A DNA stretch of 64,000 nucleotides. It comes from Candidatus Desulfofervidaceae bacterium. Its GTDB lineage: Bacteria; Desulfobacterota; Desulfofervidia; Desulfofervidales; Desulfofervidaceae. Made by a program: the position numbers and the translations under genes. The stretch spans positions 1,234 through 65,233 of the forward strand of contig JAJSZL010000002.1 in assembly GCA_030262855.1 (NCBI GenBank), written 5' to 3'. The notes under the pieces are model-generated. The model made no database searches. It was given only the letters and a program-made list of their open reading frames with translations, and was not told the DNA's origin. Shown piece after piece: positions 11,605 to 64,000 of the stretch; the first letter of the stretch is position 1; each line of letters begins with the position of its first letter.

Positions 11605-11868
11605 GTAAATGAGTTAAAATGTTAAAAGTTTAATGCTAAAATATAGCATGTAGAACAGCAAGACAGTGAAGAGGCAAATTTATTTAAAAATTAATGTTTT
11701 ATACATTAAGTTATTTCCAGCTTTCTGCGAAAATCTGTGTCCTCACAACCACTTAACTACTTAGCTACTTTTTATATTTTTCCTGCCTTTTGGCTTTTGA
11801 ACAAAAGTAAATTTTAAGTTGAGAAGAAAGGATTGCAAAGATCAGAATTTTTATATAAAAGCAATTCA

Positions 11869-13221
11869 ATGATGGGTAGAAACCATAAACATTTCACATT
11901 AAGATTAGTCTTTGTTATCCCCTTCTTCACTACAAGCCTAGTGCTCATTACCAGCCTTTGGTTTATCAGAGCATTTCTTACCGAAGCCGGGTTTAAAATG
12001 ATTTTGTTGAGCACAGGTCTTCTTATAGGCATAGCTTTCATTGCAGGCTTAGCTTTGGCAATGGCTATTTCTCGCCCTCTCAAGACCCTGGAAGACAAGG
12101 CTCAGGCCGTTATTCAAGGGGATTTAGCCCAAGAGATAACCCTTCCTCTTCGGGACGAGCTAGGTAGTCTGGGCCATATTTTTAACGAAATGATTGCTGC
12201 ATTTAATAAATATCTCAAAGAAAGCATGGAAGCAGGAGTAGTGGTGATAAACAATAAAGGATTTATTACCAGTACAAACTATGTTGCCAATCAAATTTTT
12301 AACATTCCTCAAGGAGCAATGGAGGGAAAACATTACACCGAAATATTTGCTCCAGTCCCAGAACTCTTATCCTTAATAAAAACGGCCTTGGCTGAACAAA
12401 GGCCTTTTTCTGTTCAGGAAATGAAAATGTCCAAAGAAGAACTTATCTTGAATGTAAGTGTTTCTGTATTTAAAGAACCACAAAATTTATCCCCAGGATT
12501 AGTGATCTTTTTTAGAGAAGTAAGCCAGCTAAAGGAATTCCAACGCCAACTAGCCCATGCAGACCGTTTGGCTTATCTAGGCACCTTAACCGCCGGCCTG
12601 GCTCACGAGATAAGAAATCCTTTAGCAGGCCTGCAAAGTCTGGTAGAATTGGTAGAAACAAATTTGACCAATCCCCAACGCTGTCAGAGATATCTGGAAG
12701 AAATAAATAAGGTAATTACTAGACTCAATTCGTTGGTAACTGATATGCTCGCTTATGCCCATGCAGATCCAGAGGAGTTCAAACCTATAGAAATCAACCA
12801 GCTGTTAGAAAACACATTGACCATGCTGGATTATGAGTTTAATATAAATGAGTTTGAAATAATAAAAGACTTTTCTTCCCAGCCATTAACAATTATGGGA
12901 GATGAAGCAAAACTCATTCAGGCATTTAATAATGTTATTCGTAATAGTTTACAAGCCATGCCCAGCAGAGGGAGGTTAATTATTGCAACCAGCTCTACAT
13001 CCAAAAAGGTAGTGGTGGAAATCACCAATACCGGTTCATATATTCCTCCAGAAAAGCAGGAAGCAATATTCGTCCCCTTTTATACTACTAAATCTAACGG
13101 TACTGGTTTAGGCTTACCCATTGCCAAACGGATTATAGAAAGTCACGGTGGCAAGATAGAGTTAAAAAGTAGCCCAGAAAAAGTTACTACTTTTATAGTG
13201 GAGTTGCCAATTTCAAAATGA
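11869..13221 (+). CDS. sensor histidine kinase (2 TM-HAMP-PAS-HisKA-HATPase), partner of the downstream sigma-54 activator
   Basis: H-box LAHEIRNPL, N-box NVIRNSLQAM and G-box TGLGLPIAKRIIESHGG. Its stop overlaps the start of the next gene by 4 nt. The track starts at TTG 11833; ATG 11869 is preferred. Confidence 0.85.
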   Translation: MMGRNHKHFTLRLVFVIPFFTTSLVLITSLWFIRAFLTEAGFKMILLSTGLLIGIAFIAGLALAMAISRPLKTLEDKAQAVIQGDLAQEITLPLRDELGSLGHIFNEMIAAFNKYLKESMEAGVVVINNKGFITSTNYVANQIFNIPQGAMEGKHYTEIFAPVPELLSLIKTALAEQRPFSVQEMKMSKEELILNVSVSVFKEPQNLSPGLVIFFREVSQLKEFQRQLAHADRLAYLGTLTAGLAHEIRNPLAGLQSLVELVETNLTNPQRCQRYLEEINKVITRLNSLVTDMLAYAHADPEEFKPIEINQLLENTLTMLDYEFNINEFEIIKDFSSQPLTIMGDEAKLIQAFNNVIRNSLQAMPSRGRLIIATSSTSKKVVVEITNTGSYIPPEKQEAIFVPFYTTKSNGTGLGLPIAKRIIESHGGKIELKSSPEKVTTFIVELPISK

Positions 13222-14582
13222 GTTATCGGTTGTTAATTATTGAAGATGATAGTACCATGCGTTTTGCCCTAAGTGAACTGCTTTCTCAAAGGGGTTATGA
13301 AATAGTAGAGGCCGCAGATGCTGAAGCAGGCCTTAAAGTAGTCCAAAAAGAAGAAATTGATTTAGCCATTGTAGATATCAAACTCCCTGGAATGAGTGGC
13401 CTAGAAGCCATTTCACTAATACAGGAAAAAGACGCTTCTTTACCTGTAATTATCATCACTGCCTACGGAGATAAAAAAAAGGCACTTGAAGCTCTGAAAA
13501 AAGGTGCCTACGACTATTTTACCAAACCCTTCAAAATGGAAGAAATTGAAATTGTCATTAAACGAGCCTTGGAAAAGAGACGACTTGAAAAGGAGATACA
13601 GACGTTGAGGCAGCAGATTGAAGTTGGACAGGAATTTAGAGAAATTATCGGCCAGAGTGAAGCCATGAAAAAGCTTTTCAATCTGGTTAAAAAGGTTTTA
13701 GATACAGATGTAACAGTGTTAATTTCAGGAGAAAGCGGAACTGGAAAGGAGCTCGTGGCCTCTGTGCTTCATCACCATAGCCCACGTAAAGACAAACCCT
13801 TTATAAAAATAAACTGCGCTGCCATTCCCGAAACATTATTAGAAAGTGAGCTCTTTGGATACGAAAAGGGAGCCTTTACAGGTGCAATCTCTTCTAAACC
13901 CGGCAAATTTGAGTTAGCCCATGAAGGAACAATATTTCTAGATGAAATTGGAGAAATGCCTCTTTCTATCCAGGCTAAAATTTTGAGAGTGCTTCAGGAG
14001 AAAGAATTTGAACGGGTTGGAGGAACTAAAACGATAAAGGTTGATGTGAGAATTATTGCCTCTACTAATCGGGATTTATGGGAAGCCGTTCAGAGGAAGA
14101 CCTTTCGTGAAGACCTTTATTTCAGGCTAAATGTAATAAACATCCATCTCCCACCTTTAAGGGAAAGAAAAGAAGACATACCCTTGCTAATTGAACACTT
14201 TATAAGAAAATATAATGTAAAATTTAACAAAAAAGTAACTGGCATCTCCCAAGAAGCGTTGGGCTTGCTTTATCAATATCATTGGCCGGGAAATGTACGT
14301 GAATTAGAAAACTATATTGAAAGGGCTGTTCTTTTAGCTCCTAGGAAATTGATTACTTCTAAGGAGTTACCTTATTATCTCCTAGGAACAACTGAGGAAA
14401 TCAGGGAGAAGAATCTGGATGAAATTATAGAGGGAATAGAAAAAAGGCTAATTATTGACGCCTTGAGGAAAACGCACGGTGTACAAACCCGAGCAGCGGA
14501 GATCTTAGGCATTAGTGAGAGGAGTCTCTGGCATCGGGTGAAGAAATATGGTATTAAGGCAAAAGACTTCAAAAATAGGTGA
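13218..14582 (+). CDS. sigma-54-dependent response regulator (NtrC/PilR-like bacterial enhancer-binding protein)
   Basis: REC domain ([10 protein letters not shown]). AAA+ sigma-54 interaction module with Walker A GESGTGKE and the GAFTGA loop. C-terminal Fis-type HTH ([21 protein letters not shown]). Lies immediately upstream of the pilin gene. Confidence 0.9.
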
Positions 14583-14620
14583 CAAATTTTGTAGTTTGAG
14601 CTACAGAGTTTGTTATTATT
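14582..14620 (+). promoter_or_regulatory. candidate enhancer (UAS) for the pilin sigma-54 promoter
   Basis: ACAAATTTTGTAGTTTGAGCTACAGAGTTTGTTATTATT contains the inverted TGTAG-N6-CTACA. It lies 48-86 nt upstream of the -24 element. It aligns without gaps to 29583-29621 with 28/39 identities, and 14/15 over the first 15 nt. Confidence 0.5.
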
Positions 14621-14667: not shown

Positions 14668-14683
14668 TGGTATAAAACTTGCA
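14668..14683 (+). promoter_or_regulatory. sigma-54 (-24/-12) promoter of the pilin gene
   Basis: TGGTATAAAACTTGCA has GG and GC at the exact consensus spacing (TGG-N9-TTGCA). It sits about 40 nt upstream of ATG 14724, downstream of a sigma-54 activator gene. Confidence 0.75.
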
Positions 14684-14723: not shown

Positions 14724-15161
14724 ATGGCTAAATGGTTATTGAAAAAGAAAAAGGGGTTCACGTTAATTGAATTGTTAGTGGTTTTGGTAATTTTAGCTAT
14801 TCTGGCGGCAGTAGCAGTGCCTCTTTATACAAATTACACCAAAAAGGCCTATTTCAGCGAAGCATCAGGCGTAATCGGGGCGATTGTTCAAGATGCAAGG
14901 GCCTATTATCAAGCTAATGGGAGTTGGCCTCTAGATAGTTGGTTTGTAGAAGGGAATTATGTTGATACTGGCGACCCTAATGTTAATTTTACTTATACTT
15001 ATAGCGGTAACGTAATTACTGCTACTGGAAAAAACAAGCTTGATAGTAGTGACACTATTAGTTACAATTTGAGCACATCTAAATGGACGGGAGCAGGCAT
15101 TTTTGCAAACTTTCCATTTCCTAATCCATCGTCATCATCATCGTCATCATCGTCATCATAA
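14724..15161 (+). CDS. pilA: type IV major pilin (prepilin) with a C-terminal deca-serine tail
   Basis: AGGAGG RBS at 14711-14716. Leader [11 protein letters not shown] followed by [22 protein letters not shown] (class III signal, Glu5). Mature 134 aa with no Cys, ending in [10 protein letters not shown]. The track's longer ORF (14679) would overlap the promoter. Confidence 0.9.
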
Positions 15162-15171
15162 GAAGAAGGTT

Positions 15172-20799: not shown

Positions 20800-22665
20800 T
20801 TACTCTCTCAATATTCTAGGCGTAATAAAAATGAGTAACTCCTCATTGCTCTCCAATTTATGCTTACCCCGGAAAAAGTAACCAAATAATGGAATTTTTC
20901 TAAACCAAGGCACAGATTTTTCTTCTTTAGTCCGATTTTCCTTATATAATCCCCCTATAACTACCGTCTCTCCATTTTTCACTAGCAAGGTGGTTTTAGC
21001 TTTCTTTTTGATGATTGTAGGAGCACCCAGGACGGTTTTGGTAAAATCGGCCTCTTCTTTAGAAGCCAAAATATCCATTTTAATCAGACCTGGTGAAACA
21101 ATATGAGGTTTAATTTTTAAACTCAACAAGGCATCAATCCAGGATAAAGTGGGATAGGCCTCCGTCGTCCCAGGAAAGGGTACGAGCTCTTGATAAGGAA
21201 TACGACGGCCGCTTTCTATTACTGCTTCTTTATTATCCATAGTGGCAATTCTGGGGCTGGAAAGGATCTTCACTCTTCCCTGGGATTCCAGGGCAAGTAA
21301 TTTTGCCTCAATATCAAAAGGAGCTCCAGACAGTTTACTAAAGGTCAAACCAAGCCCTCCCGTGGGAGTGCTTTGCGTTGGGAGAGGAATATTAACAATG
21401 GTATTTTCCGCCTCCCCGGAAACTTTTACTGAACCTATTTGCCCTGTAGCTCCCCACTGAATACCCAATTCTTTTTCATAGTCCTCACTCATCTCAACAA
21501 TCCGAGCTTCTATCATGACCTGAGGAATTTTTACATCTAGTTGTTTAATCAGTGCTACTATCTGACGCACATTTTCTTCTACATCGCAAATAATAAGGGC
21601 ATTCTTATCTTTATTCACCTGAATAAAACCATAAGGCTTTCCCTCTAGGTCTCGAGTAAGGTAGGGTTCCAAATTTTTTTTCAATTCTTCTATATCTAAA
21701 TAGTAAACTGGTTGCATCCAGGTCACCAAGGGTTGAGTTATCTTCTGGGCTACCTTTAATTTAGTTCTCAGCTCTACCTTTAGTCTGGCCTCCTGTTCTT
21801 GTTCTTCTAGCTCCATCTTTTTTACTTCTGCCTCTATTCGTCGTAAATTTAGCTCTTTCTTTTTTTCTTTTTCGTAAGTTTCACTTGTAATTACTCGAAT
21901 TAGGTTGTCCATTTGGGTGGCCACTAAACCATGGGAATCTAAAATAGATTGAAAGGCCTTGTCCCAGGGCACATCCACCAAGTGAATTGAGACCCTTCCT
22001 TTCACTTTAGGGCCAAAAATAATATTCAAGCCCGCTTCCTCTGCCATCCACTTTAATATCATCTTTAAATCCGCCTGCTCAAAGTCTAAAGAAACAGGAG
22101 TGCGAGGATAAGCTCTTGTCTTCTTGGATAAAGCAGGCTTAGATGGAGGTTCTTTTCTTTTAGGCAAAGCCTTTTGTTTAACTGGTCCCGGTGTTAAAAC
22201 CCGAGGGGTAATTATAGGAGTAAATACCACCGTTAATCCATTATCTTTAAAATATACATCACGGTGAAGCACTGTTTTTAAGTAAGCCACTAATTGAACC
22301 ATATTATCCTGAGGGAAGGAAATTACCTCAATATTTTTAATACCCCAATTATCTACTTCTAAAGATTTAACTCCTGGACTTAATTCTGCCCCAGGAATTT
22401 CTATGATTAAGCGTAATGGATTTAATAATTCATACACAGTGTAGGTTAAAGGCGCAGTAGAATGAATTGTCCAGAGTATCTTTCTCCCCTTTTCACTATC
22501 CACTTTTATGGATGTAATCCGCGCTTTTTTAGGAGATTGAAGTGATGCTGATGATGGAATAACTGCCTGTTTTGGAGCACAACTTATGAATATACAAAAG
22601 ATAACTCCTAAAAACTTAATTAGATATTTTTTGCCAAGTTTCTTGCACAATTTTCCACTCCCCAT
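20800..22665 (-). CDS. pilQ: type IV pilus secretin PilQ
   Basis: 621 aa with a lipoprotein-like signal (FISC), an AMIN-like N-terminal region, a long K/E coiled linker and a C-terminal secretin domain (VVIGGLYKE...VPWFRKIPLFGYFF). The start may be internal, since it overlaps the upstream gene by 50 nt. Confidence 0.88.
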   Translation of the reverse strand: MGSGKLCKKLGKKYLIKFLGVIFCIFISCAPKQAVIPSSASLQSPKKARITSIKVDSEKGRKILWTIHSTAPLTYTVYELLNPLRLIIEIPGAELSPGVKSLEVDNWGIKNIEVISFPQDNMVQLVAYLKTVLHRDVYFKDNGLTVVFTPIITPRVLTPGPVKQKALPKRKEPPSKPALSKKTRAYPRTPVSLDFEQADLKMILKWMAEEAGLNIIFGPKVKGRVSIHLVDVPWDKAFQSILDSHGLVATQMDNLIRVITSETYEKEKKKELNLRRIEAEVKKMELEEQEQEARLKVELRTKLKVAQKITQPLVTWMQPVYYLDIEELKKNLEPYLTRDLEGKPYGFIQVNKDKNALIICDVEENVRQIVALIKQLDVKIPQVMIEARIVEMSEDYEKELGIQWGATGQIGSVKVSGEAENTIVNIPLPTQSTPTGGLGLTFSKLSGAPFDIEAKLLALESQGRVKILSSPRIATMDNKEAVIESGRRIPYQELVPFPGTTEAYPTLSWIDALLSLKIKPHIVSPGLIKMDILASKEEADFTKTVLGAPTIIKKKAKTTLLVKNGETVVIGGLYKENRTKEEKSVPWFRKIPLFGYFFRGKHKLESNEELLIFITPRILRE

Positions 22666-23824
22666 TTTCCTTTTTTAAACATAAAGTCTTTAACCCTACA
22701 TCTTTATACTGTTCAGTCTGAAAATATTGTTTAAAGGATAGAACAACCCTTTCTCTTTGCTTAGAAAATTGAACATCTTTTAGCTCTAACTTAATCCTCT
22801 GGTAGCGATTAAACAATCCTTTTTTATATCTTCGCCAGGCTTTCCAATCCATTCCCTGATGAGAAAACTGAGATGAGTAACAACTCATATAATTCTCCAG
22901 GTCTTTATTCTCCCAGGTTTTTTCCCAAAAATTAAGAAAGGTCTCTATTTCTTTAGGCAATATCTTCTGCCTTTTTACAATAGTTGCAGTCCCTGGGCGT
23001 AACACAACATACCTTCCATCTTGGGCTAGGATTACCCGGTCTTCTCTGATAAAAGATACTTTATATCCTTTAATAATATCGCCTTCTTTGACAATTTGGT
23101 CATTGATCATGGCTTTATACACATTTTTAAATCGCATAATACCATGAAGGCGGAAAAGTGTCTTTCTACCCGAGGTCGCAGTTTTGGCTCTTGTTGTTAA
23201 AACCGAGGCAGAAAATGGATTGCGCTTTACCCGAGGTAAAGAAGGAGAAGAAAAATTAACTTTTACCTTGGAAAACGTTTGGCCTTTCATCTCAATACTG
23301 CTTAAAACCATTTTAACTTTAGGAAATCTTTGGTCCTTACTTTTTATGATGTTTAAAGTTTCAATGTTAAGGCCTAATGTATATTCTATGTCTTTGATAA
23401 ACCTCAACAATTGAGCATAAGGCGCTTCTGTTTCTAAGACGAATAAAAACTTGGTATAATAAAGATTTTCTTCCTGGGGTAAGAGTTTGACCTGCAACAC
23501 TTTGACTCCTTTAGCACTACTTAACTCAGCTATTTTTTGCAGGAAAAAAGAAGTCTGCTCATGCGATGGAACTTCATGGAGTTGGAAAAAGTTAATCCGA
23601 GCAATTCTTCCCTGCGAAAGGAGCCCTCTTTCTCTTTCAATTTCTTCTTTTATCTCGTTAATCCTTTCACGTAATTGCAAATTGTTTTTAGTCAATTGAG
23701 CCAGTTCACTTTTTTTATGCACTATAAAACCGTAAAAAGCCCCATTGCCGAGCAAAAGGGAAGCAAACAAAAGAAAAAAACAAATATTCCTTTTACGACC
23801 GGACATATTCTCCTGCCAATTCAA
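22616..23824 (-). CDS. PilO/PilP-like pilus alignment protein fused to a C-terminal ~105-aa NTF2/SnoaL-like module
   Basis: N-terminal TM plus coiled coil (PilO-like). A central beta-region LHGIMRFKNVYKAMINDQIVKEGDIIKGYKVSFIREDRVIL is PilP/GspC-like. The C-terminal FLNFWEKTWENKD...CYSSQF...WKIVQETW is paralogous to the C-termini of the ORFs at 26443 and 27960. Confidence 0.65.
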   Translation of the reverse strand: MNWQENMSGRKRNICFFLLFASLLLGNGAFYGFIVHKKSELAQLTKNNLQLRERINEIKEEIERERGLLSQGRIARINFFQLHEVPSHEQTSFFLQKIAELSSAKGVKVLQVKLLPQEENLYYTKFLFVLETEAPYAQLLRFIKDIEYTLGLNIETLNIIKSKDQRFPKVKMVLSSIEMKGQTFSKVKVNFSSPSLPRVKRNPFSASVLTTRAKTATSGRKTLFRLHGIMRFKNVYKAMINDQIVKEGDIIKGYKVSFIREDRVILAQDGRYVVLRPGTATIVKRQKILPKEIETFLNFWEKTWENKDLENYMSCYSSQFSHQGMDWKAWRRYKKGLFNRYQRIKLELKDVQFSKQRERVVLSFKQYFQTEQYKDVGLKTLCLKKENGEWKIVQETWQKISN

Positions 23825-26442: not shown

Positions 26443-27876
26443 TTATAAAGGTTCCCAATTTTCCAACAAAATGTGCCAACCAGAATTTTCCCCTTTTTTT
26501 ACCAGAAATAGTGTTTTAAAACCCTCATCTTGATAATTTTCTGATTTATATTTTTGCAAAAATCTTGTCATCACCACCTGACCTAAGTAGGGGTAGCAAT
26601 TGTAAAAATAAATCTCTATGTTATTAAAGCTAACCCGGATATTCTTCCGCCTTTTAGCCAGGTGGCGTTTATGTTCAAGCCAGCTTTTTAAAGTATAACC
26701 CCCAGTGTGAAACTTAGGATGATAACAACTTCCATAGGTATCAAAATCTTTATTCTCCCAGGCCTTCTTCCAGCGTTTTAAAAAAGCATTAATTTCCTTA
26801 CGCCATTTTTGATTTTCCTGAGGACTAATCCATTTAATTTCTTTAGTGATTACTAAAGGTGTCTCATCAAGCCGAATAGCGTGAGAGAGCTCAAGTAAAT
26901 CAGCATTGGTCATCACTATACATCCTCGTGTAGCTTGGGGCAACCAGGGCTTGAAATCATGATTGGTTCCATGTAACCAGATACCATGGCCATCTTTCCC
27001 TAAGAATCGGTCAAACAAATTGGGATAATCCAACACAAAGGCCATATTCCCATAATCATCCCCAAATTTTTTGAGGTCTGTCCCCTCAATCAATCTTTTC
27101 AGAAAATATACCCCTTCAGGTGTATTGTTATCTCCCTCTTTAAACTTATCAAAATGATTTTTCCCCGTTGTGCAGGGGAAAACCTGCTTTAACTGCATTC
27201 CTTTTGGGGTAATAGTGTAAAAAAGCAAGCGCTGTTTTTCCTTATCTACAAGCAAACACACCTTTCCTGGAGGTAAGGCAATTATATTTAACGGAATTTT
27301 ACCTAAGGGAATTTCTAAGAAACCCTCTTCCCAAGAAAACCTCTTTAAAAGCTCCTCCATATACGATGTCTTTATCTTCCCATTTCTTGTCTCTCGCTGC
27401 ATAAGTTCTTCCACTACTTGTTTTGCTTCTTTATACTCACCTCTAGCCTCATGCAGCAGGGCCAGATCTAAAGCTGCATTGGTATAAAGCGGGTCATACT
27501 CAAGGGCCTTTTTAAAACAGTTCAAAGCCATCTCTTGGTCTTTCAACAACCACTCTACCTTACCTAAATAATAAAGAGCAATAGGGTCATTAGGATTAAT
27601 TTCTAGCAGCTGTCTTATCTTTTTTAGATCTTCTGCCGAACCAGTCTTCCATAATTCCTTCACAGCCATGAATAGATATATTCGGGCCAGAGCCCGATTA
27701 ATCTCTTTTGAAGCCGGCCTTTTGCGAGAAATCTCTACTAAATAATCTCTAGCCTTATCAAAACATCCATTTTTTAAATATTGCTCCACTAAAGGAGGAA
27801 GCTCCTCTGCCTTTACATGTGGAATCCAGCTTAATCCAAAAACCAATCCCAATATTATAATCGCTTTTGCTCGCAT
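26443..27876 (-). CDS. secreted TPR + YkuD L,D-transpeptidase + C-terminal NTF2/SnoaL-like module
   Basis: Signal peptide, then TPR repeats. YkuD catalytic motif HGIWLHGTNH...ATRGCIVM. The C-terminal FLKRWKKAWENKDFDTYGSCYHPKF...WHILLENW is paralogous to the ORFs at 22616 and 27960. Confidence 0.8.
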   Translation of the reverse strand: MRAKAIIILGLVFGLSWIPHVKAEELPPLVEQYLKNGCFDKARDYLVEISRKRPASKEINRALARIYLFMAVKELWKTGSAEDLKKIRQLLEINPNDPIALYYLGKVEWLLKDQEMALNCFKKALEYDPLYTNAALDLALLHEARGEYKEAKQVVEELMQRETRNGKIKTSYMEELLKRFSWEEGFLEIPLGKIPLNIIALPPGKVCLLVDKEKQRLLFYTITPKGMQLKQVFPCTTGKNHFDKFKEGDNNTPEGVYFLKRLIEGTDLKKFGDDYGNMAFVLDYPNLFDRFLGKDGHGIWLHGTNHDFKPWLPQATRGCIVMTNADLLELSHAIRLDETPLVITKEIKWISPQENQKWRKEINAFLKRWKKAWENKDFDTYGSCYHPKFHTGGYTLKSWLEHKRHLAKRRKNIRVSFNNIEIYFYNCYPYLGQVVMTRFLQKYKSENYQDEGFKTLFLVKKGENSGWHILLENWEPL

Positions 27877-27959: not shown

Positions 27960-29498
27960 CTAATTACTATTCGCTACTTGAGGATGCCATTCTTCTTTAA
28001 TGATGCGCCAGTCCTTTTGCCATTTTTCCAAATAAAGACACTTCTCCCCTTCGTCTTCGTGTTTATCATCTCGATAATACTGATGAAAACATGCAATTGT
28101 CATCTTGCCTGTGTGATTAATTCTCAAGTCCTTGATCTCTATTTTGATATTATTTCGTTTAGAAAAAATCCTTTGTTTCCAGGCCAACCATGCCTTCAAA
28201 TCCATTTCCTGACTATAAAATCTAGGACTATAACAAGCTGCATAGGCAGCCAAATCTTCATGTTGCCAATAGTTACGCCATTTCTGAATAAAGTCTTTAA
28301 TACTCGTATCTGAAGAAATTTTTGTAGATAGAGGTTTAACTAAAGACAATTTGGTTTTAATTTGATTACCTAAATGAGGATTTAAGGCAAGCACCCGTTC
28401 ATACTCCTGGCGGGCCAGGTCATATTTTCCCATAGCTTCAAAAGTCAGGCCCAAACCATAGTGAATTTGATAATCGTCTTTTAGGGCAAGGGCCTTTTTA
28501 AAGGCACCCATTGCCTTCTCATATTGACCCAGTTGGTAGTAAGTTAAACCCAAATAATGATGGACATAAGCCTGTTCTGGCAAAGCAACAGCCGCTTTTT
28601 TTAACACAGAAAGGGCTTTTATATATTTTTTTAACAAGTAATAAATTTCACCTAAAGTATAATAAATTTCTTTCTTTTCTGGTGCTAAGGCTAAAGCAAT
28701 CTCATAGTTCCGGGCAGCCTTTTCCAATTGTCCATCTTCTTTGGCCATCTGAGCCTGGTGGATAAAAAAAGAAACACCATACTCCTCGTCCAGCCCGGCA
28801 GCCAAACGATACTCGGCTATAGCTTTATTAAAATCGCCTTCCTCTTGATAAAGTTTACCTAGAAGAAAATGTGCCCTGGCACTCTTAGGGTTTACCTGAA
28901 GGATACGTTCATACTCTGCCCGGAGCTCTTCGTTTGTAGGATTTTGCTGATAAAGCTGTTGATACTCTATTATCGCCTTTCCTACATAAAGACGCGCTAG
29001 ATTAAAGCGAGCTATGCTGTAATCAGGCTTTATTTCAATGGCCTTTTTAAAAACGGCCTCAGCCTGCTCAGTCTGACCCTGCACCCAGTAAATCACCCCT
29101 AAAGTATTATAGGCCTTCACTTCGTGAGGGAAATCTTTGATAATTGTCTTTAAATGTAAAATGGCCTTATCATATTCTTTTTTATCAATATATGCCCGAA
29201 TAAGATTATACCGTGCGGTAAGGAAATTAGGATTTAAAGAAAGGGCCTTAAGCCACAGTTTTACTGCTTTATCTAGCTCGCCTATTTTCACATAAACCAT
29301 GCCTAAATCATTATATACTTCTACCGCCTTTGGTGCTTGGGTAAGGATTTTTTCAAAGACACGCTGGGCTTGCTTATATTGACCTGCTTGGAAATAAGTC
29401 AGGCCCACCTGGCGGTCTTTTTCTAAAGCAGGGGTAAGGGCATAACTAAAAATAGACCAAAAACTCAAAAAAAACAGGCAAGATAAAATACGTTTCAT
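27960..29498 (-). CDS. secreted multi-TPR protein (PilF/PilW-like candidate) with the same C-terminal NTF2/SnoaL-like module
   Basis: 512 aa with a signal peptide and about 10 TPR repeats. C-terminal FIQKWRNYWQHEDLAAYAACYSPRF...WRIIKEEW. Confidence 0.75.
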   Translation of the reverse strand: MKRILSCLFFLSFWSIFSYALTPALEKDRQVGLTYFQAGQYKQAQRVFEKILTQAPKAVEVYNDLGMVYVKIGELDKAVKLWLKALSLNPNFLTARYNLIRAYIDKKEYDKAILHLKTIIKDFPHEVKAYNTLGVIYWVQGQTEQAEAVFKKAIEIKPDYSIARFNLARLYVGKAIIEYQQLYQQNPTNEELRAEYERILQVNPKSARAHFLLGKLYQEEGDFNKAIAEYRLAAGLDEEYGVSFFIHQAQMAKEDGQLEKAARNYEIALALAPEKKEIYYTLGEIYYLLKKYIKALSVLKKAAVALPEQAYVHHYLGLTYYQLGQYEKAMGAFKKALALKDDYQIHYGLGLTFEAMGKYDLARQEYERVLALNPHLGNQIKTKLSLVKPLSTKISSDTSIKDFIQKWRNYWQHEDLAAYAACYSPRFYSQEMDLKAWLAWKQRIFSKRNNIKIEIKDLRINHTGKMTIACFHQYYRDDKHEDEGEKCLYLEKWQKDWRIIKEEWHPQVANSN

Positions 29499-29582
29499 GA
29501 GTTTTTTTTAACCAAAAAAGGTGGGGTTGGCAAGAATGTCTGCAGAAGGCTGCGTCCTGATTTTATAATTTCTCAAATTCCA

Positions 29583-29621
29583 ACAAATTTTGTCGTTCAA
29601 ATGACAAAATTTGTCAATTTT
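29583..29621 (+). promoter_or_regulatory. candidate enhancer (UAS): perfect 10-bp inverted repeat plus a third half-site
   Basis: AAATTTTGTC (29585-29594), an 8-nt spacer, then GACAAAATTT (29603-29612), followed by an overlapping TTTGTCA. Lies 71-110 nt upstream of the -24 element. Homologous to 14582-14620. Confidence 0.6.
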
Positions 29622-29691
29622 AGAAGAGGTAAAGGGCATTATTTAAAGCTGGCCTTCTCACAAGTTCCGAAACATTCAAATTTTTCCAAAA

Positions 29692-29707
29692 TGGCACATT
29701 TTTTGCT
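29692..29707 (+). promoter_or_regulatory. sigma-54 (-24/-12) promoter of the cytochrome operon
   Basis: TGGCACATTTTTTGCT is an exact match to TGGCAC-N5-TTGCT. It sits about 135 nt upstream of ATG 29843, which has an AAGGAGGT RBS. Confidence 0.8.
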
Positions 29708-29842
29708 CCTTTGTTAAATAGGGAGAGTTGGGTTGTAAAATGGTAAGAAATAATTTGACAAAATATTTTATAATTGACATTTTAAGCATAAATGATTATT
29801 TTTTAAAAAAGGGTTAAGGTTTAAGAAAGGAGGTAAATAGAA

Positions 29843-30982
29843 ATGCGAAAATGGAGTTTAATTCTGGTGCTTATTGTAGGGTTAGTTGGCCTTTATGGGG
29901 TGGCACAGGCAAAGGTAAGCGGCCCGTGTGCAAATTGTCATACCATGCATTATAGTCAAAGTCCTTGGCCTTCGGAGTGGCCATCAAGTTCACCCTCAGG
30001 GGTGTCTGGTCCTTATAAAGCATTAACTACTAGCGACTGTGTCGGCTGTCATAGTGGAAGTAGCGCAACAAAAGCAGGTGGCACTATTCCAGTAGTAAAT
30101 ATGACAACAAAACCTACTGGTACTGGTCCAGAAAAATCTTTAGCTGGTGGTAATTTTTATTGGGTAGCTACAAATGGTGGTAATGATTCCACGAAGGGAC
30201 ATAATGTAAAGTATCTAGCTGCGGTGGATTCAAATCTTAATTATGACCCACCTGGTTGGGATCCAAATGCTACGAGTGGTTTTACCTTTGGTCAGGTGGC
30301 TGGTGGAGCAGCTAATTGGGGAAGCAATCAACTGACCTGTGCTGGTACCTACGGTTGCCACGGCGACCACAGCCAAGCAGATGACTTTGCGGCTATTTAT
30401 GGCTCACACCATACTGACGACAGTGTGCTTAAAGCCGCTACGCTAGACGAAACTGCTCAGGGAACAAGTGTAGGAACAAGCTATAGATTTTTGGCCGGTA
30501 TTCATGGTATTGAAGACTCTGATTGGGAATATTCTGCTACAGATGGTACCACCGATCACAACGAATACAAAGGAGCTAGTTCAAATCAAGATTATGCGGA
30601 TAAAACTACCATCAGTTATCTCTGTGCCGAGTGCCATGGTTACTTTCACAGTGAAATCGGTGGCACTTCTCATCCATGGTTAAGACACCCGACTGATATT
30701 GTCTTGCCGGCTGCTGGTGAATACCAATATTATAATGGAAACACTACTGGCGGTGGGAGTGCTAGTGATTATAGCATTGTAGCTCCTGTTGGAATGGCAA
30801 CTTTATCTTCCCGCTCAACTGCTACTCCTGGTACAAGTGATGCAATTGTCCTTTGTATCTCCTGTCATCGGGCTCACGGCTCAGAGTATCCCGATTTGTT
30901 AAGATGGGATTACAGCACAATGGAAGCTGGCGGAGGAGCTGGCAATGTGGGTTGCTTCATCTGCCATACGCAGAAGGATTAA
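29843..30982 (+). CDS. secreted OmcS-family multihaem c-type cytochrome (5 CXXCH + 1 CX5CH)
   Basis: Sec signal ending AQA. Haem motifs are CANCH, CVGCH, CAGTYGCH, CAECH, CISCH and CFICH. The blocks CxxCHTMH, GGNFYWV, KGHN, LRHP, CISCHRAHGS and C-terminal CHTQKD parallel my recollection of Geobacter OmcS (CEGCHTMHN, GGDFGWV, KGHNI, LRHP, CLSCHRAHAS, CNKCHAKD). Confidence 0.8.
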   Translation: MRKWSLILVLIVGLVGLYGVAQAKVSGPCANCHTMHYSQSPWPSEWPSSSPSGVSGPYKALTTSDCVGCHSGSSATKAGGTIPVVNMTTKPTGTGPEKSLAGGNFYWVATNGGNDSTKGHNVKYLAAVDSNLNYDPPGWDPNATSGFTFGQVAGGAANWGSNQLTCAGTYGCHGDHSQADDFAAIYGSHHTDDSVLKAATLDETAQGTSVGTSYRFLAGIHGIEDSDWEYSATDGTTDHNEYKGASSNQDYADKTTISYLCAECHGYFHSEIGGTSHPWLRHPTDIVLPAAGEYQYYNGNTTGGGSASDYSIVAPVGMATLSSRSTATPGTSDAIVLCISCHRAHGSEYPDLLRWDYSTMEAGGGAGNVGCFICHTQKD

Positions 30983-31051
30983 TCGGATCAACAATATGAA
31001 AGTAAAAAGCCCGGTATCCCCCGGACTTTTTTAAACTTCAGGGTGTAAAAA

Positions 31052-32107
31052 ATGATGTCGAGCAGAAACTATAATCTTCGGATTTTCGGCTTGTTTTTAG
31101 GACTAATCTTTCTTTTTCCTCTCTTTGTTCATGCCAGGGTTACGGGCGTGTGTTCAAACTGTCATACCATGCATTATAGTCAAAATGGAGGACAACTTAG
31201 CTCATGGGGTAGCAATGGACCTTATCGGGCCTTATTAGTCAATGACTGTGTGGGCTGTCACACAGGCACAAATACTGGCAGTAATACTACACCTTATGTC
31301 TTTTCTGAAAGTGAACCAACTTATGGAACAAATACCCTTGCAGGTGGAAATTTTTATTGGGTAGCTCATGGGTGTGATGAATGTGGTCACAATGTAACTG
31401 CTATTCCTGGTGTAAATCAAGATAGCAATTTTACTCAAACTCCTGGTTTTGTGAGTGGTAAAACCTGCAGTAGTTGTCATGGTAGTGGCAATATGGTACT
31501 TACTAAATGTGTCTTTTGTCATAATCCAAAACATCATGCAGATGATAGTGGCCCAGTTGTAGGTGATGATGAAGAGGTTAAGTATAGGTTTTTAAGCCTT
31601 GACTTTTTCCACCCATCTACTTTTCAGGAAGGTACATATAATTTTTATGGGGTTGCAGGTATAGAAGATGATGATTGGGAATATACTGTAAGTTCAAGTG
31701 ACCATAATGAATATTGTGGTGCTACTAGTTCAGAGGATTATTCAGATGCTTCTCATTCTATAAGTAGATTTTGTGCTGCCTGTCATTGGGGATTTTATGG
31801 AGAGAATACCGGGCATTGGAAAAGGCATCCATCAGATTATGCCTTACCAAATAGTGGTGAATATGCAAATTATACAACATATAATCCTTTAGCTCCTATA
31901 GCTAGACTTGAAAGCACTTTAACAGGTATGACAGGACCAAGCTCAACTGTAACACCAGGACAGGACCAAGTTTCCTGTCTTTCCTGCCATCGTCCACACG
32001 GCTCACCCTATCCAGATATGTTGCGTTGGGACTATAACACCTGTCAGGCTGGCACAGCTAATTCTAATTGCGGTTGTTTTGTCTGTCATACAAAGAAAGA
32101 TGAATAA
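31052..32107 (+). CDS. secreted OmcS-family multihaem c-type cytochrome paralogue (7 CXXCH)
   Basis: Signal peptide ending VHA. Haem motifs are CSNCH, CVGCH, CSSCH, CVFCH, CAACH, CLSCH and CFVCH. It shares with the upstream paralogue the blocks CHTMHYSQ, GPY.AL...DCVGCH, LAGGNFYWVA, GIEDDDWEY, DHNEY, RHP.D, SCHR.HGS.YPD.LRWDY and CHT.KD. Confidence 0.8.
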   Translation: MMSSRNYNLRIFGLFLGLIFLFPLFVHARVTGVCSNCHTMHYSQNGGQLSSWGSNGPYRALLVNDCVGCHTGTNTGSNTTPYVFSESEPTYGTNTLAGGNFYWVAHGCDECGHNVTAIPGVNQDSNFTQTPGFVSGKTCSSCHGSGNMVLTKCVFCHNPKHHADDSGPVVGDDEEVKYRFLSLDFFHPSTFQEGTYNFYGVAGIEDDDWEYTVSSSDHNEYCGATSSEDYSDASHSISRFCAACHWGFYGENTGHWKRHPSDYALPNSGEYANYTTYNPLAPIARLESTLTGMTGPSSTVTPGQDQVSCLSCHRPHGSPYPDMLRWDYNTCQAGTANSNCGCFVCHTKKDE

Positions 32108-37931: not shown

Positions 37932-38402
37932 TTATTTTTGCAAAAATATCCTCCCTAGATGATACAATTTTAATAAACCTAAGCTATAAATGCCGGCAAG
38001 CAGATCATCTAACATGATACCTGTTCCCCCCTTTATTTTTTCTGCCTGTTTGAGGGGAAATGGTTTTACTATATCAAAAAATCGGAATAAAATAAAACCC
38101 CAGGTAATATTTAACCAGGTTGGAGGTAAGGTCCACATTGTTAACCAAAATCCTGCCATCTCATCAATTACCACCTGAGAGGGATCTGGTTTCCGAAAGT
38201 GTTTTGCTGCCTGCGAGGACGCATAGACACCTGCCAAAGTAATCATTAGGAGAAAAAGCAGATATTTAACTGGATCTTTAGGCAAAAAATAATAAATTGC
38301 TACTGCTAATAATGTGCCACAGGTGCCAGGAGCTCCAGGAAGATAACCAACCCCTACTCCTGTAGCCAGCCCCAAACATAATCTTTTTATTATCTCTCGC
38401 AT
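37932..38402 (-). CDS. pgpA: phosphatidylglycerophosphatase A
   Basis: 156-aa membrane protein with GxPGTxGT (GAPGTCGTL) and the DDLLAG motif. Confidence 0.85.
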   Translation of the reverse strand: MREIIKRLCLGLATGVGVGYLPGAPGTCGTLLAVAIYYFLPKDPVKYLLFLLMITLAGVYASSQAAKHFRKPDPSQVVIDEMAGFWLTMWTLPPTWLNITWGFILFRFFDIVKPFPLKQAEKIKGGTGIMLDDLLAGIYSLGLLKLYHLGRIFLQK

Positions 38403-51033: not shown

Positions 51034-51063
51034 CAAAATAGCCCAAAATAGACCAAAATGACA
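51034..51063 (+). repeat. three tandem 10-mers (CAAAATAGCC CAAAATAGAC CAAAATGACA)
   Basis: Read directly from the sequence. Confidence 0.85.
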
Positions 51064-51396
51064 CCCAATTTGCATCCAGCTTTTAAGGTAAAAGTCGTTA
51101 GATCAAAAAGGTAAGTCAGATCCACTAGCCGCTTAGATTTCAGTTAGAAAAAGCTAGAAAAAGTGTGTTAGATGACTGCCTATTTCCTGCGTTTCCACAA
51201 CAACATGATAAGAAATAAAAGAGTGAGAAAAACAATGACAACACTTATGGCCAGGCTTTTAGGATCGTTTGAGGGGTTAGCGTGGGTTATCGTATGAAGA
51301 ATATAACTGTAGGGCAGATAAGGAAGTAATTCCATTTAGGGTATCAAAAGGAGCAAGCATATCCTCTTTTTTCATACCTGGCTCCTTATAAGTCAA

Positions 51397-62270: not shown

Positions 62271-64000
62271 TTATTCATCCTCTAACAATGCTTTCACTTG
62301 GGCAGACAACTGGTCATAAGTAAATCCTGCCACATTGATCGCCTTCTTCTCGCAAATAGCCATACAGACCCCACATCCTTGACATACCGCCTCTTCCACT
62401 TTGGCGTATCTTCTTCTCTTTTTGCCTTCCCTTTTTTCCTCTCTTACCATGGTAATTGCCTTAAATGGACACGCCTTCCAACAAAGCCCACATCCTATAC
62501 ATAACTCTTTATCTACATGGGCAACAATTGGCTCCAACGTGGCCTTCTTTTGGGAAAGAAGGCTTAAAACTTTACTTGCAGCGGCACTTGCCTGGGCTGC
62601 AGTTTCAGAAATATCCTTTGGGGCTTGAGCTGCACCAGCCAGATAAACACCTGGACTTACCGATTCCACAGGTCTTAATTTGGGATGGACTTCACTTAAA
62701 AATCCGAATTCATCTACAGAGACTTTAAGAAGTTTAGCCAAATCAGCCGTTCCTTTGCTAGGAACTACAGCTGGAGCCAATACAACCATATCCGCTTCTA
62801 TTTCTACTGCCATTCCACTTATTGTATCTGCCCCCCAAACCACAAGTTTATCTTCTCGTTGAAATACCTTGGAGACTTTACCCCGCAGGTATACTATCCT
62901 TTCCTCTCCCATTACCCGCTGCACAAATTCTTCATAGCGTTTACCGGCCGCCCTGACATCAATAAAAAACACATATGCCTCACCATCAGGCACTGCGTGT
63001 TTGTAAAGTAATGCTTGCTTGGCCGTGTACATGCAACAAATTTTGGAACAATAGGGACACCCATGTTCCGGATCCCTTGAACCCGCACACTGAATGAAAA
63101 CCACCCTTTTGGGAATTTTACCATCTGAAGGCCGTCTTACAACGCCCCCAGTAGGTCCAGAAGCAGAAAGGAGTCTTTCAAACTCCAAACCTGTAACCAC
63201 ATCTGGGTATTTTCCACCCCCGTATTCTTTTAAGTTTTCTATTGGTAGCAAATCAAAACCTGTCGCTATTACAACCGCACCTACTTCTATTTCTATCTCC
63301 TGCGGTTCCATCAAATAATTAATGGCTCTAGGACCGCAGGCTTTATAACACTGCTCACAGACCACCATTTTTTGAGTATTCAGGCAGTTTTCTAAATCAA
63401 GGGTGTAAACCAGCGGCACGGCCTGGGGAAAAGGCACATAAATCGCCTTTCGTGCTCCCAAACCTTGGTCAAACTCATTAGGCACTATTACCGGGCAAAC
63501 ATCCATACAATCACCACAACCGGTGCATTTTTCCGGAATAACATACCGAGGTTTTTTTTCAATGGTGACCTTAAAATTACCTATTATTCCTTTTATATTC
63601 TTTACTTCCGCATAGGTGATTACATGGATATTCTTATGATGAGCTGCCTCCACCATTAAAGGAGTTAAAATACAAGCAGAGCAGTCCAAAGTAGGAAAGG
63701 TCTCACTTAACTGGGCCATGTGCCCACCTAGAGAGGGAGTTCTTTCTACCAAATAGACTTCAAAGCCTCCATTAGCAATGTCTAAGGCTGTCCGGATACC
63801 AGCAATACCACCACCAATAACCAAAACCTTCCTGGTCAATGGCACTTTAATCGGCTCTAATGGCTCAGCCAGTCTTACTTTAGCAACCGCAGCTTTGATT
63901 AACCTAAATGCCTTCTCCGTAGCTATCTCGGGTTTGTCATGATGCACCCAAGAACAGTGTTCTCTGATATTGGCAATCTCTAGCAAATAGGGATTAAGAC
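62271..64000 (-). CDS. HdrA-like FAD/Fe-S oxidoreductase, N-terminus beyond the right edge of the window
   Basis: ANIREHCSWVH, VIGGGIAGI, several CxxCxxCxxxCP motifs and a C-terminal ferredoxin domain. The frame stays open upstream of the track's TTG at 63986 through to position 64000. Its stop abuts the korD start. Confidence 0.8.
   Translation of the reverse strand, partial: LNPYLLEIANIREHCSWVHHDKPEIATEKAFRLIKAAVAKVRLAEPLEPIKVPLTRKVLVIGGGIAGIRTALDIANGGFEVYLVERTPSLGGHMAQLSETFPTLDCSACILTPLMVEAAHHKNIHVITYAEVKNIKGIIGNFKVTIEKKPRYVIPEKCTGCGDCMDVCPVIVPNEFDQGLGARKAIYVPFPQAVPLVYTLDLENCLNTQKMVVCEQCYKACGPRAINYLMEPQEIEIEVGAVVIATGFDLLPIENLKEYGGGKYPDVVTGLEFERLLSASGPTGGVVRRPSDGKIPKRVVFIQCAGSRDPEHGCPYCSKICCMYTAKQALLYKHAVPDGEAYVFFIDVRAAGKRYEEFVQRVMGEERIVYLRGKVSKVFQREDKLVVWGADTISGMAVEIEADMVVLAPAVVPSKGTADLAKLLKVSVDEFGFLSEVHPKLRPVESVSPGVYLAGAAQAPKDISETAAQASAAASKVLSLLSQKKATLEPIVAHVDKELCIGCGLCWKACPFKAITMVREEKREGKKRRRYAKVEEAVCQGCGVCMAICEKKAINVAGFTYDQLSAQVKALLEDE

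Follow-up and report, generated by a model that had tools for sequence, protein, structure and literature searches.

A 64-kb stretch of a Candidatus Desulfofervidaceae metagenome-assembled genome (MAG), referred to here as the window, carries a type IV pilus cluster and, past it on the plus strand, two genes for OmcS-like multihaem c-type cytochromes, and the question raised by this locus is whether the two sets of genes are switched on together. The cytochrome pair is preceded by a sigma-54 promoter and, further upstream, by a palindromic element resembling one that lies between the gene for a PilR-like sigma-54 activator and the pilin gene. A preliminary description of the locus, made from the DNA letters, had proposed that pilin and cytochromes form one regulon. 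The present analysis supports this proposal, as the element was found with orthologous cytochrome pairs in three lineages and with pilins in four, including unlinked loci, and proved to be rare; a PilS/PilR sigma-54 regulon is likely to cover both the pilin and the extracellular cytochromes of this bacterium, a reading based on the sequences, the rarity and conservation of the element, the domains of the encoded proteins and the homology of the cytochromes to OmcS. All coordinates refer to the window, scans of this genome for activators and motifs cover these 64 kb, and related loci are designated by L numbers.

The promoter of the cytochrome pair, TGGCACATTTTTTGCT (29692-29707, plus strand), is the exact sigma-54 match that had first been reported, and it is the sole sequence on either strand of the window to fit TGGCAC-N5-TTGCW with no mismatch. 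Its GG and GC dinucleotides are 10 bp apart, and a start site near 29718 is predicted. The pilin operon has a corresponding promoter, TGGTATAAAACTTGCA (14668-14683, plus strand), in which GG and GC are kept despite two mismatches to the consensus. Elsewhere in the window, sequences one mismatch away from the sigma-54 consensus are found at 38304-38319 on the minus strand (TGGCACATTATTAGCA) and at 51059-51074 on the plus strand (TGACACCCAATTTGCA).

Upstream of both promoters are two boxes with the core ACA-N5-TGT and the 15-bp consensus [T/C][G/T/A]ACA-N5-TGT[C/A][A/G]. Their centres are 21 bp apart, which would place them on one face of the helix. At the cytochromes, box 1 (CAACAAATTTTGTCG, 29581-29595) is followed by box 2 (TGACAAAATTTGTCA, 29602-29616), a perfect 15-bp palindrome. 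At the pilin, the first three bases of box 1 (TGACAAATTTTGTAG, 14580-14594) are the TGA stop codon of pilR, and with box 2 (CTACAGAGTTTGTTA, 14601-14615) the site spans 14580-14615. An AAATTT-type spacer and the 21-bp layout are common to the two operons, and within a shared 32-bp geometry the pilin site reads ACAAATTTTGTAGTT-tg-AGCTACAGAGTTTGT and the cytochrome site ACAAATTTTGTCGTT-ca-AATGACAAAATTTGT. The element had initially been seen as a 10-bp inverted repeat with an 8-nt spacer and an overlapping TTTGTCA half-site, lying 71 to 110 nt upstream of the promoter. The repeat is present (AAATTTTGTC at 29585-29594, gttcaaat, GACAAAATTT at 29603-29612), as is the half-site (29610-29616), and the two do lie upstream, although together they start 107 nt and end 76 nt before the first base of the promoter. 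The palindrome further extends to arms at 29583-29597 and 29600-29614 that are 14/15 complementary across a 2-nt spacer, equivalent to two direct copies of ACAAA(A/T)TTTGTC 21 bp apart. The 10-bp palindrome consists of the right half of box 1 joined with the left half of box 2, and the pair of tandem 15-bp boxes is a more likely functional unit than the palindrome with its 8-nt spacer. A central TGT-N10-ACA, kept in 8/8 Desulfofervidaceae-type sites including L003, may be an alternative unit.

The word operator, previously applied to this element, was not upheld. The sites are paired and dyad-symmetric, share one helical face and lie upstream of a -24/-12 element, in the 70-200 bp range expected for enhancers of NtrC/PilR-type activators, so that the two-box element is more likely to be an upstream activating sequence (enhancer) than an operator. 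In enhancers of the NtrC type, two adjacent dimer sites nucleate the AAA+ oligomer. Counted from the predicted start sites, the enhancer is centred near -118 at the cytochromes and near -95 at the pilin, and in relatives its centre ranges from about -94 to about -167. Taken together, the enhancer and promoter of the cytochrome operon are very probably functional, judging from their sequence and its conservation.

The resemblance between the two upstream regions was reproduced as first noted, with 28/39 identical positions between 29583-29621 and 14582-14620 and 14/15 in the first 15 nt. No other ungapped offset of the two intergenic regions aligns as well, and none of 200 shuffles reached this value, the highest shuffle giving 25. 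Short motifs (ATTTTGTC, ACAAWWWTTGT and the 15-mer with three mismatches) were not enriched in the window, where the 8-mer ATTTTGTC occurs 6 times for 4.2 expected, and the discriminating motif is the two-box composite only. ACA-N5-TGT-N10-ACA-N5-TGT has two perfect matches in the 64 kb, namely the pilin and cytochrome sites, for an expectation of 0.08 even when one mismatch is allowed. With one mismatch there is a single match in the window, inside the gene for cytochrome 2, and this is the one exception to the finding that in about 194 kb of window and related loci the composite (one mismatch at most) is restricted to the upstream regions of pilin and cytochrome genes. No match to the composite was obtained in unrelated activator loci totalling 526 kb. 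A weight matrix built from 16 boxes recovered all four boxes in the window and one match at 63034, which was treated as chance, as it is inside a coding region (62271-63986, minus strand) and in the lowest score range. None of the pilus-assembly genes between the pilin and cytochrome operons has a box.

Both sites are also retained in other lineages. Orthologous cytochrome pairs with the two boxes and the promoter, the latter constant in position and drifting in sequence, were found in L001 (80% protein identity; boxes ACAAATTTTGTCGcttaaaCGACAAAATTTGTC, promoter identical to that of the window), in L003 (69%; ACAAAAAATGTCgaaacTTTGTCAtttataTGACAAAATTTGTCG and TGGAACGCTTTTTGCA) and in L005, from a Ca. 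D. auxilii MAG (62%; ACACTTTTTGTCAtagaatGGACAAATTTTGT and TGGCATAAATCTTGCG). Box 1 has a counterpart in L161 as well, and a sigma-54 promoter also precedes the cytochrome orthologues of L094, L161 and others. On the pilin side, orthologues of PilR in L086 (85% identity), L088 (73%) and L090 (62%) and a 58% identical relative in L171 all occur in the order kinase, activator, pilin that is seen in the window, and in each the pilR end bears the two boxes at the same 21-bp spacing, followed by a sigma-54 promoter and then the pilin; the counterparts of the pilin promoter are TGGCATAGAAATTGCT, TGGTATAAATTTTGCA, TGGCACAAAAATTGCT and TGGCACAAATTTTGCA. Including the window, there are thus five lineages in which the pilin site adjoins or overlaps the pilR terminus. 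In multiple alignments, long runs of invariant columns were confined to the boxes and the ribosome-binding site and, in the pilin set, the promoter. In genome GCA_027038965.1 the cytochrome site (L003) and the pilin site (L088) are on different contigs, so the motif marks two unlinked operons of one organism. Furthermore, the neighbouring genes in L003 and L005 are unlike those of the window while the boxes and the sigma-54 promoter remain with the cytochrome pair, so the element accompanies the cytochromes and is tied neither to the pilus cluster nor to the divergent tetratricopeptide repeat (TPR) gene.

The candidate for the shared activator is encoded at 13218-14582 (plus strand), overlapped at its start by the gene for a PilS-like sensor histidine kinase with HAMP, PAS, HisKA and HATPase_c domains (11833-13221, plus strand; Pfam). 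Pfam and NCBIfam searches identified a sigma-54 enhancer-binding response regulator with receiver, AAA+ Sigma54_activat and Fis-type HTH_8 domains (PF00072, PF00158, PF25601, PF02954), with the GAFTGA motif encoded at 13869. It is the sole GAFTGA protein encoded on either strand of the window, in line with the earlier statement that only one enhancer-binding protein is encoded nearby. No model named PilR is among the 25 NCBIfam matches listed for it, and the best of these (AtoC, NtrC, PEP-CTERM regulator) are all under their cut-offs. Its nearest relatives in the PDB are Aquifex NtrC4 (4l4u, the best, E 1.6e-117) and NtrC1. The assignment as PilR is made from genomic context and helix-turn-helix (HTH) family, in that the domain set is accompanied by a PilS-type kinase partner and by placement directly before a type IV pilin gene with a sigma-54 promoter. 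When the C-termini of 120 homologue matches were read to compare DNA-binding regions, the recognition region (SERSLWHR; an ERSLWHR-type helix) was found to be common to about 100 of these 120 closest database relatives, and three of three more distant members sampled from this HTH family were located in type IV pilus clusters. A related helix, SFRS(F/L)RY, is present in pilin-linked activators of other phyla. A homologue search using the 62-residue DNA-binding tail alone returned no candidates, and no RpoN-box match marking rpoN was found within the 64 kb. Being the only such activator in the window, belonging to a pilus-cluster HTH family and having the pilin site at the 3' end of its own gene, PilR is the most likely binder of both sites, and its role as shared activator of pilin and cytochromes is considered probable on these sequence grounds.

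The mechanism that we infer, including PilR binding, a stoichiometry of two dimers, the start sites, DNA looping and a sigma-70 promoter, is modelled on NtrC-type activators because of the domain content of the activator and its best PDB matches, NtrC4 and NtrC1. The PilS-like kinase would phosphorylate the PilR-like activator, two dimers of which would occupy both boxes via their Fis-type HTH domains and nucleate an AAA+ ring. The AT-rich DNA between enhancer and promoter would loop, bringing PilR into contact with the sigma-54 holoenzyme at -24/-12, and ATP hydrolysis would open the closed complex of the holoenzyme. Pilin and cytochromes would thus be co-induced as one regulon, and a sigma-70-type promoter in the leader may supply basal, activator-independent expression.

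How far such control extends among OmcS-like genes was assessed in a metagenome scan with the cytochrome family, which provided 70 OmcS-like loci with upstream DNA (L091-L170). At most 450 nt upstream, 22 of the 70 genes (L166 at ~1415, L143 at ~1407 and L140 at ~1403 are examples) have a sense-strand match to a stringent sigma-54 pattern, amounting to 23 matches in 30.3 kb; the controls for the same pattern gave one antisense match and five matches in coding sequence (139.5 kb over both strands). PilR-type boxes (ACAAAWTYTGT) were found in 5 of the 70 loci (L094, L159, L104, L117 and L161), and most of the sigma-54-positive loci are without them. At L143, the gene for a different enhancer-binding protein ends immediately upstream of the OmcS-like gene.

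Several observations weigh against a single PilR regulon. The tests of activator and motif specificity in this genome are limited to 64 kb of it, and the rarity test in the window is partly circular, as the composite was derived from the same two sites, although no such circularity affects the relatives or the unrelated loci. The enhancer-to-promoter distance ranges from 70 to 143 bp among lineages, the boxes of L003 are spaced by 32 bp instead of 21 bp with a half-site between them, and no match to the IHF consensus (one mismatch at most) was found between enhancer and promoter, or indeed in the window. Lastly, the inner half-sites differ, being TGTAG/CTACA at all five pilin sites and TGTC(G/A)/(C/T/G)GACA at the cytochromes, which could mean that two related proteins are involved. 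The cytochrome enhancer would then be real but bound by another sigma-54 activator, such as a PilR paralogue encoded elsewhere, and the two operons would belong to separate regulons. The sigma-54 promoters without PilR-type boxes at many OmcS-like genes of other lineages, and the activator gene next to the OmcS-like gene of L143, are in keeping with this explanation. However, hybrid boxes occur in both sets of sites (TGACA...TGTAG in pilin box 1 of the window, CTACA...TGTCA in L088 and CTACA...TGTCC in L161), which weakens the two-protein objection. Part of the half-site difference also has a separate explanation, as pilin box 1 encodes the last codons and stop of pilR in several lineages. The identical 21-bp layout and AAATTT-type spacer at the two operons also speak against separate activators, and so, less forcefully, do two features of the closest-homologue list of PilR, namely the fall from the 85, 73 and 62% identical orthologues to 59% or less, and the absence of any further entry labelled Desulfofervidaceae in a list where most entries are without an organism name.

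Further evidence against a second activator came from five loci with a pilin directly downstream of the activator gene, picked from a contig scan with PilR in which the matches listed had at most 50% identity. Pilin-linked activators of Acidobacteriota and Aminicenantes are accompanied by TGACA-N5-TGTCA boxes, always ahead of a sigma-54 promoter (TGACAAGGATTGTCA in Aminicenantes, TGACAGATTTTGTCA and TGACAGGAATTGTCA in Vicinamibacterales); a weaker copy of the box frequently lies 23 bp further upstream. This supports the single box as the unit, and cytochrome box 2 of the window has the same TGACA-N5-TGTCA form. The TGTCA type is the one used by pilin-linked activators of other phyla. With both sides considered, control of the cytochromes by an activator other than PilR is regarded as unlikely.

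Still less probable is that the palindrome serves as the operator of a conventional dimeric repressor or of a sigma-70 activator whose target is either the divergent TPR gene (27960-29498, minus strand) or the proximal TTGACA promoter, with an incidental resemblance to the pilin site. The location is indeed a divergent intergenic region, 83-118 bp from the start codon of the TPR gene, and the leader does hold a candidate TTGACA-type promoter. However, the upstream neighbours differ in L003 and L005 and yet the boxes are retained next to the cytochrome pair with its sigma-54 promoter, no minus-strand sigma-54 match exists between 29499 and 29580, and recurrence of this composite at the pilins of five lineages far exceeds what chance would produce. 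An AT-rich palindrome arisen by chance, or a hairpin or terminator without regulatory role, would suit the composition of the window (40% G+C), the lack of enrichment of ATTTTGTC and the pilin copy at the pilR end, a possible place for a terminator, but is very improbable given that the gene upstream of the cytochrome site is divergent, so that no gene ends there, that the boxes are kept at 62-69% protein identity despite diverged flanks and that the composite is missing from the unrelated loci.

The overlap of the pilin site with pilR is visible in the protein itself. In L090 (3035-3049) and L171 (4381-4395), the sequence CTACAA(A/G)ATTTGTA(A/G) encodes the pilR-terminal residues LQ(N/D)L and the stop codon, and C-termini of LQNL, LQNA or LQDL are seen in about a dozen of the 120 closest members of the activator family. 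A DNA-binding site thus appears, from these sequences, to shape the C-terminus of the activator that would bind it.

Between the sigma-54 promoter and the first cytochrome gene is a leader in which a further copy of the half-site, TTTGACAAAAT, had been placed at about 29752-29762. The sequence is present 2 nt away, at 29754-29764, and does not constitute a full box. It falls in a segment (29754-29802, plus strand) with two TTGACA hexamers (29755-29760 and 29774-29779), proposed as a proximal sigma-70-type promoter, and a promoter scan returned TTGACA-17-TATTTT at 29774-29802. TTGACA with a -10-like hexamer 17-18 bp on, just past the sigma-54 promoter, recurs in L003, L005/L094, L117 and L104. 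Given this recurrence and the incomplete box, TTTGACAAAAT is more likely a sigma-70 -35 element than a PilR half-site. No riboswitch or other structured RNA was indicated in the leader, as there was no Rfam match and the fold z-score of -0.44 was not significant. An 18-nt segment overlapping the -12 element (29701-29718) has 83% complementarity with 29820-29837, the ribosome-binding region of cytochrome 1. Translational control through this pairing was set aside, since the 5' arm overlaps the -12 element and is upstream of the predicted start site; the complementarity would be relevant solely to transcripts starting upstream of the sigma-54 promoter.

A variant of this arrangement is found in L161 (470-1697), where an 81% identical orthologue of cytochrome 2 has the signal peptide, enhancer and promoter of cytochrome 1, together with a third box upstream. 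Cytochrome 1 and the leader of about 115 nt are absent; the part corresponding to about 29725-29840 is missing from the homologous promoter region, which leaves 46 nt between the promoter and the start codon. The sequence suggests that the paralogues underwent deletion or recombination, or else that the contig is an assembly chimera.

Cytochrome 1 (29843-30982, plus strand) is a six-haem c-type protein with a signal peptide and, in translation, five CXXCH motifs and one CX4CH motif. Cytochrome 2 (31052-32107, plus strand) is a multihaem paralogue, 41% identical to it and likewise included in the family alignment, in which the cysteine and histidine columns are invariant. An exact look-up of the cytochrome of the window retrieved no record; P0001 (locus tag LWW94_00580, from a Candidatus Desulfofervidaceae MAG) is 100% identical to cytochrome 1. 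A PDB search with cytochrome 1 as a single sequence gave no match, while a 34-member family profile matched OmcS (6ef8_A) at E 1.4e-19 along about 320 positions, nearly its full length, with 28-343 of the 365 profile positions aligned to residues 8-347 of 407. The term OmcS-like, as used from the outset, is justified by this alignment as denoting distant homology, the relationship being distant in that a profile was needed to detect it. Between the two genes is a G+C-rich hairpin (31004-31031) flanked by an A-run (AAAAA) and a T-run (TTTTTT), a possible partial terminator that could raise the abundance of cytochrome 1 over that of cytochrome 2.

The type IV pilus cluster spans 11.8-29.5 kb and begins with the kinase, the activator and the pilin with its minor pilins. 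The pilin gene (14724-15161, plus strand; N-terminal methylation motif by Pfam N_methyl and translation) leads an operon of pilin and minor pilins that extends to about 17578. The C-terminus of the pilin is a run of ten serines (15120-15161); the overlapping frame of the next open reading frame (15103-15170) is His/Arg-rich, so the true start of this minor pilin is probably further along, near MFVNQKGSTLVEL. The minor pilins are followed on the minus strand by pilC, pilB, a secretin gene, pilM and genes for three TPR/Cds6_C proteins. These three (22616-23824, 26443-27876 and 27960-29498), situated between pilM and the cytochromes, have a Cds6_C NTF2-like C-terminal domain; two contain TPR repeats, and one of those two adds a YkuD L,D-transpeptidase domain. 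The next genes on the plus strand are the two cytochromes and then alaS.

Methane- and alkane-oxidising archaea have Candidatus Desulfofervidus as a syntrophic partner, and in thermophilic methane-oxidising consortia electrons are thought to reach it via pili and extracellular cytochromes. If the proposed regulon is correct, the signal sensed by PilS sets the level of both, and the shared enhancer supplies a motif with which the rest of the regulon can be delimited in complete genomes. It is conceivable, though we hold this tentatively and at somewhat less than even odds, that PilS/PilR is the master switch of the whole direct interspecies electron-transfer apparatus, pili and OmcS-like cytochrome nanowires together, in the Desulfofervidaceae that partner these archaea and that sigma-54 control is widespread, and possibly ancestral, for OmcS-family genes. 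In that case, the genes would have been connected to different activators in different lineages. The wider sigma-54 pattern suggests that expression of nanowire genes is generally gated by signal-dependent activators, which matters for the reading of metatranscriptomes and for the heterologous expression of cytochrome nanowires. In HotSeep-1 consortia, pilA and OmcS-like cytochromes are highly expressed, and pili and extracellular cytochromes rank among the bacterial partner's most strongly expressed genes (PMC5947290, PMC10553843).

Among known systems, the cytochromes themselves are most readily compared with the nanowire cytochrome OmcS of Geobacter sulfurreducens (6ef8/6nef) and with the OmcS-like cytochromes described from syntrophic sulfate reducers (PMC10553843). 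They share six haem-binding motifs and secretion with OmcS, and the paired paralogues recall omcS-omcT. The activator resembles NtrC and Aquifex NtrC4 (4l4u) in its receiver, AAA+ and Fis-type HTH domains and in having two dyad sites 70-170 bp upstream of -24/-12, whereas its recognition sequence and targets differ from those of NtrC, and its oligomerisation is assumed by analogy. Like PilR of Pseudomonas aeruginosa, it would be a sigma-54 activator that binds ahead of a pilin promoter. There, the sites show a NifA-like TGT-N11-AGA hallmark and GTCT/TGTC elements (Jin et al. 1994, as quoted in PMC6058289), compared with TGT-N10-ACA and TGTC/GACA here. The P. aeruginosa system differs in its recognition helix (SERSLWHR in the present protein) and in its regulon partner, which is flagellar genes and not cytochromes, and the present sites are two defined 15-bp palindromic boxes 21 bp apart.

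The closest parallel in kind is Geobacter, where PilR activates an RpoN-dependent pilA promoter adjoining pilR (PMC2725144; see also PMC6058289 for sigma-54 control of pilA). PilR of G. sulfurreducens controls at least 44 genes, several c-type cytochromes among them, according to a preprint (bioRxiv 10.1101/319194, citing Juarez 2009), and a survey of the Geobacter genome predicted many PilR sites (Krushkal 2010, as cited in PMC6058289). The pilS-pilR-pilin order and a sigma-54 pilin promoter directly after pilR are common to both systems, as would be the inclusion of cytochromes in the regulon. In the literature searched, nothing was found that connects PilR or sigma-54 with these genes in Desulfofervidus or with the omcS family at large, and the one Desulfuromonas pilR-pilin spacer seen (L075) is without ACA-N5-TGT boxes. 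The difference from Geobacter is that here, in a Desulfofervidaceae host, an OmcS-family gene pair carries the two-box enhancer of the pilin, conserved across lineages. Control of pilin and cytochromes by PilR is thus known in kind from Geobacter, and the proposed regulon would be a further one of this kind, with a clear and conserved cis-element.

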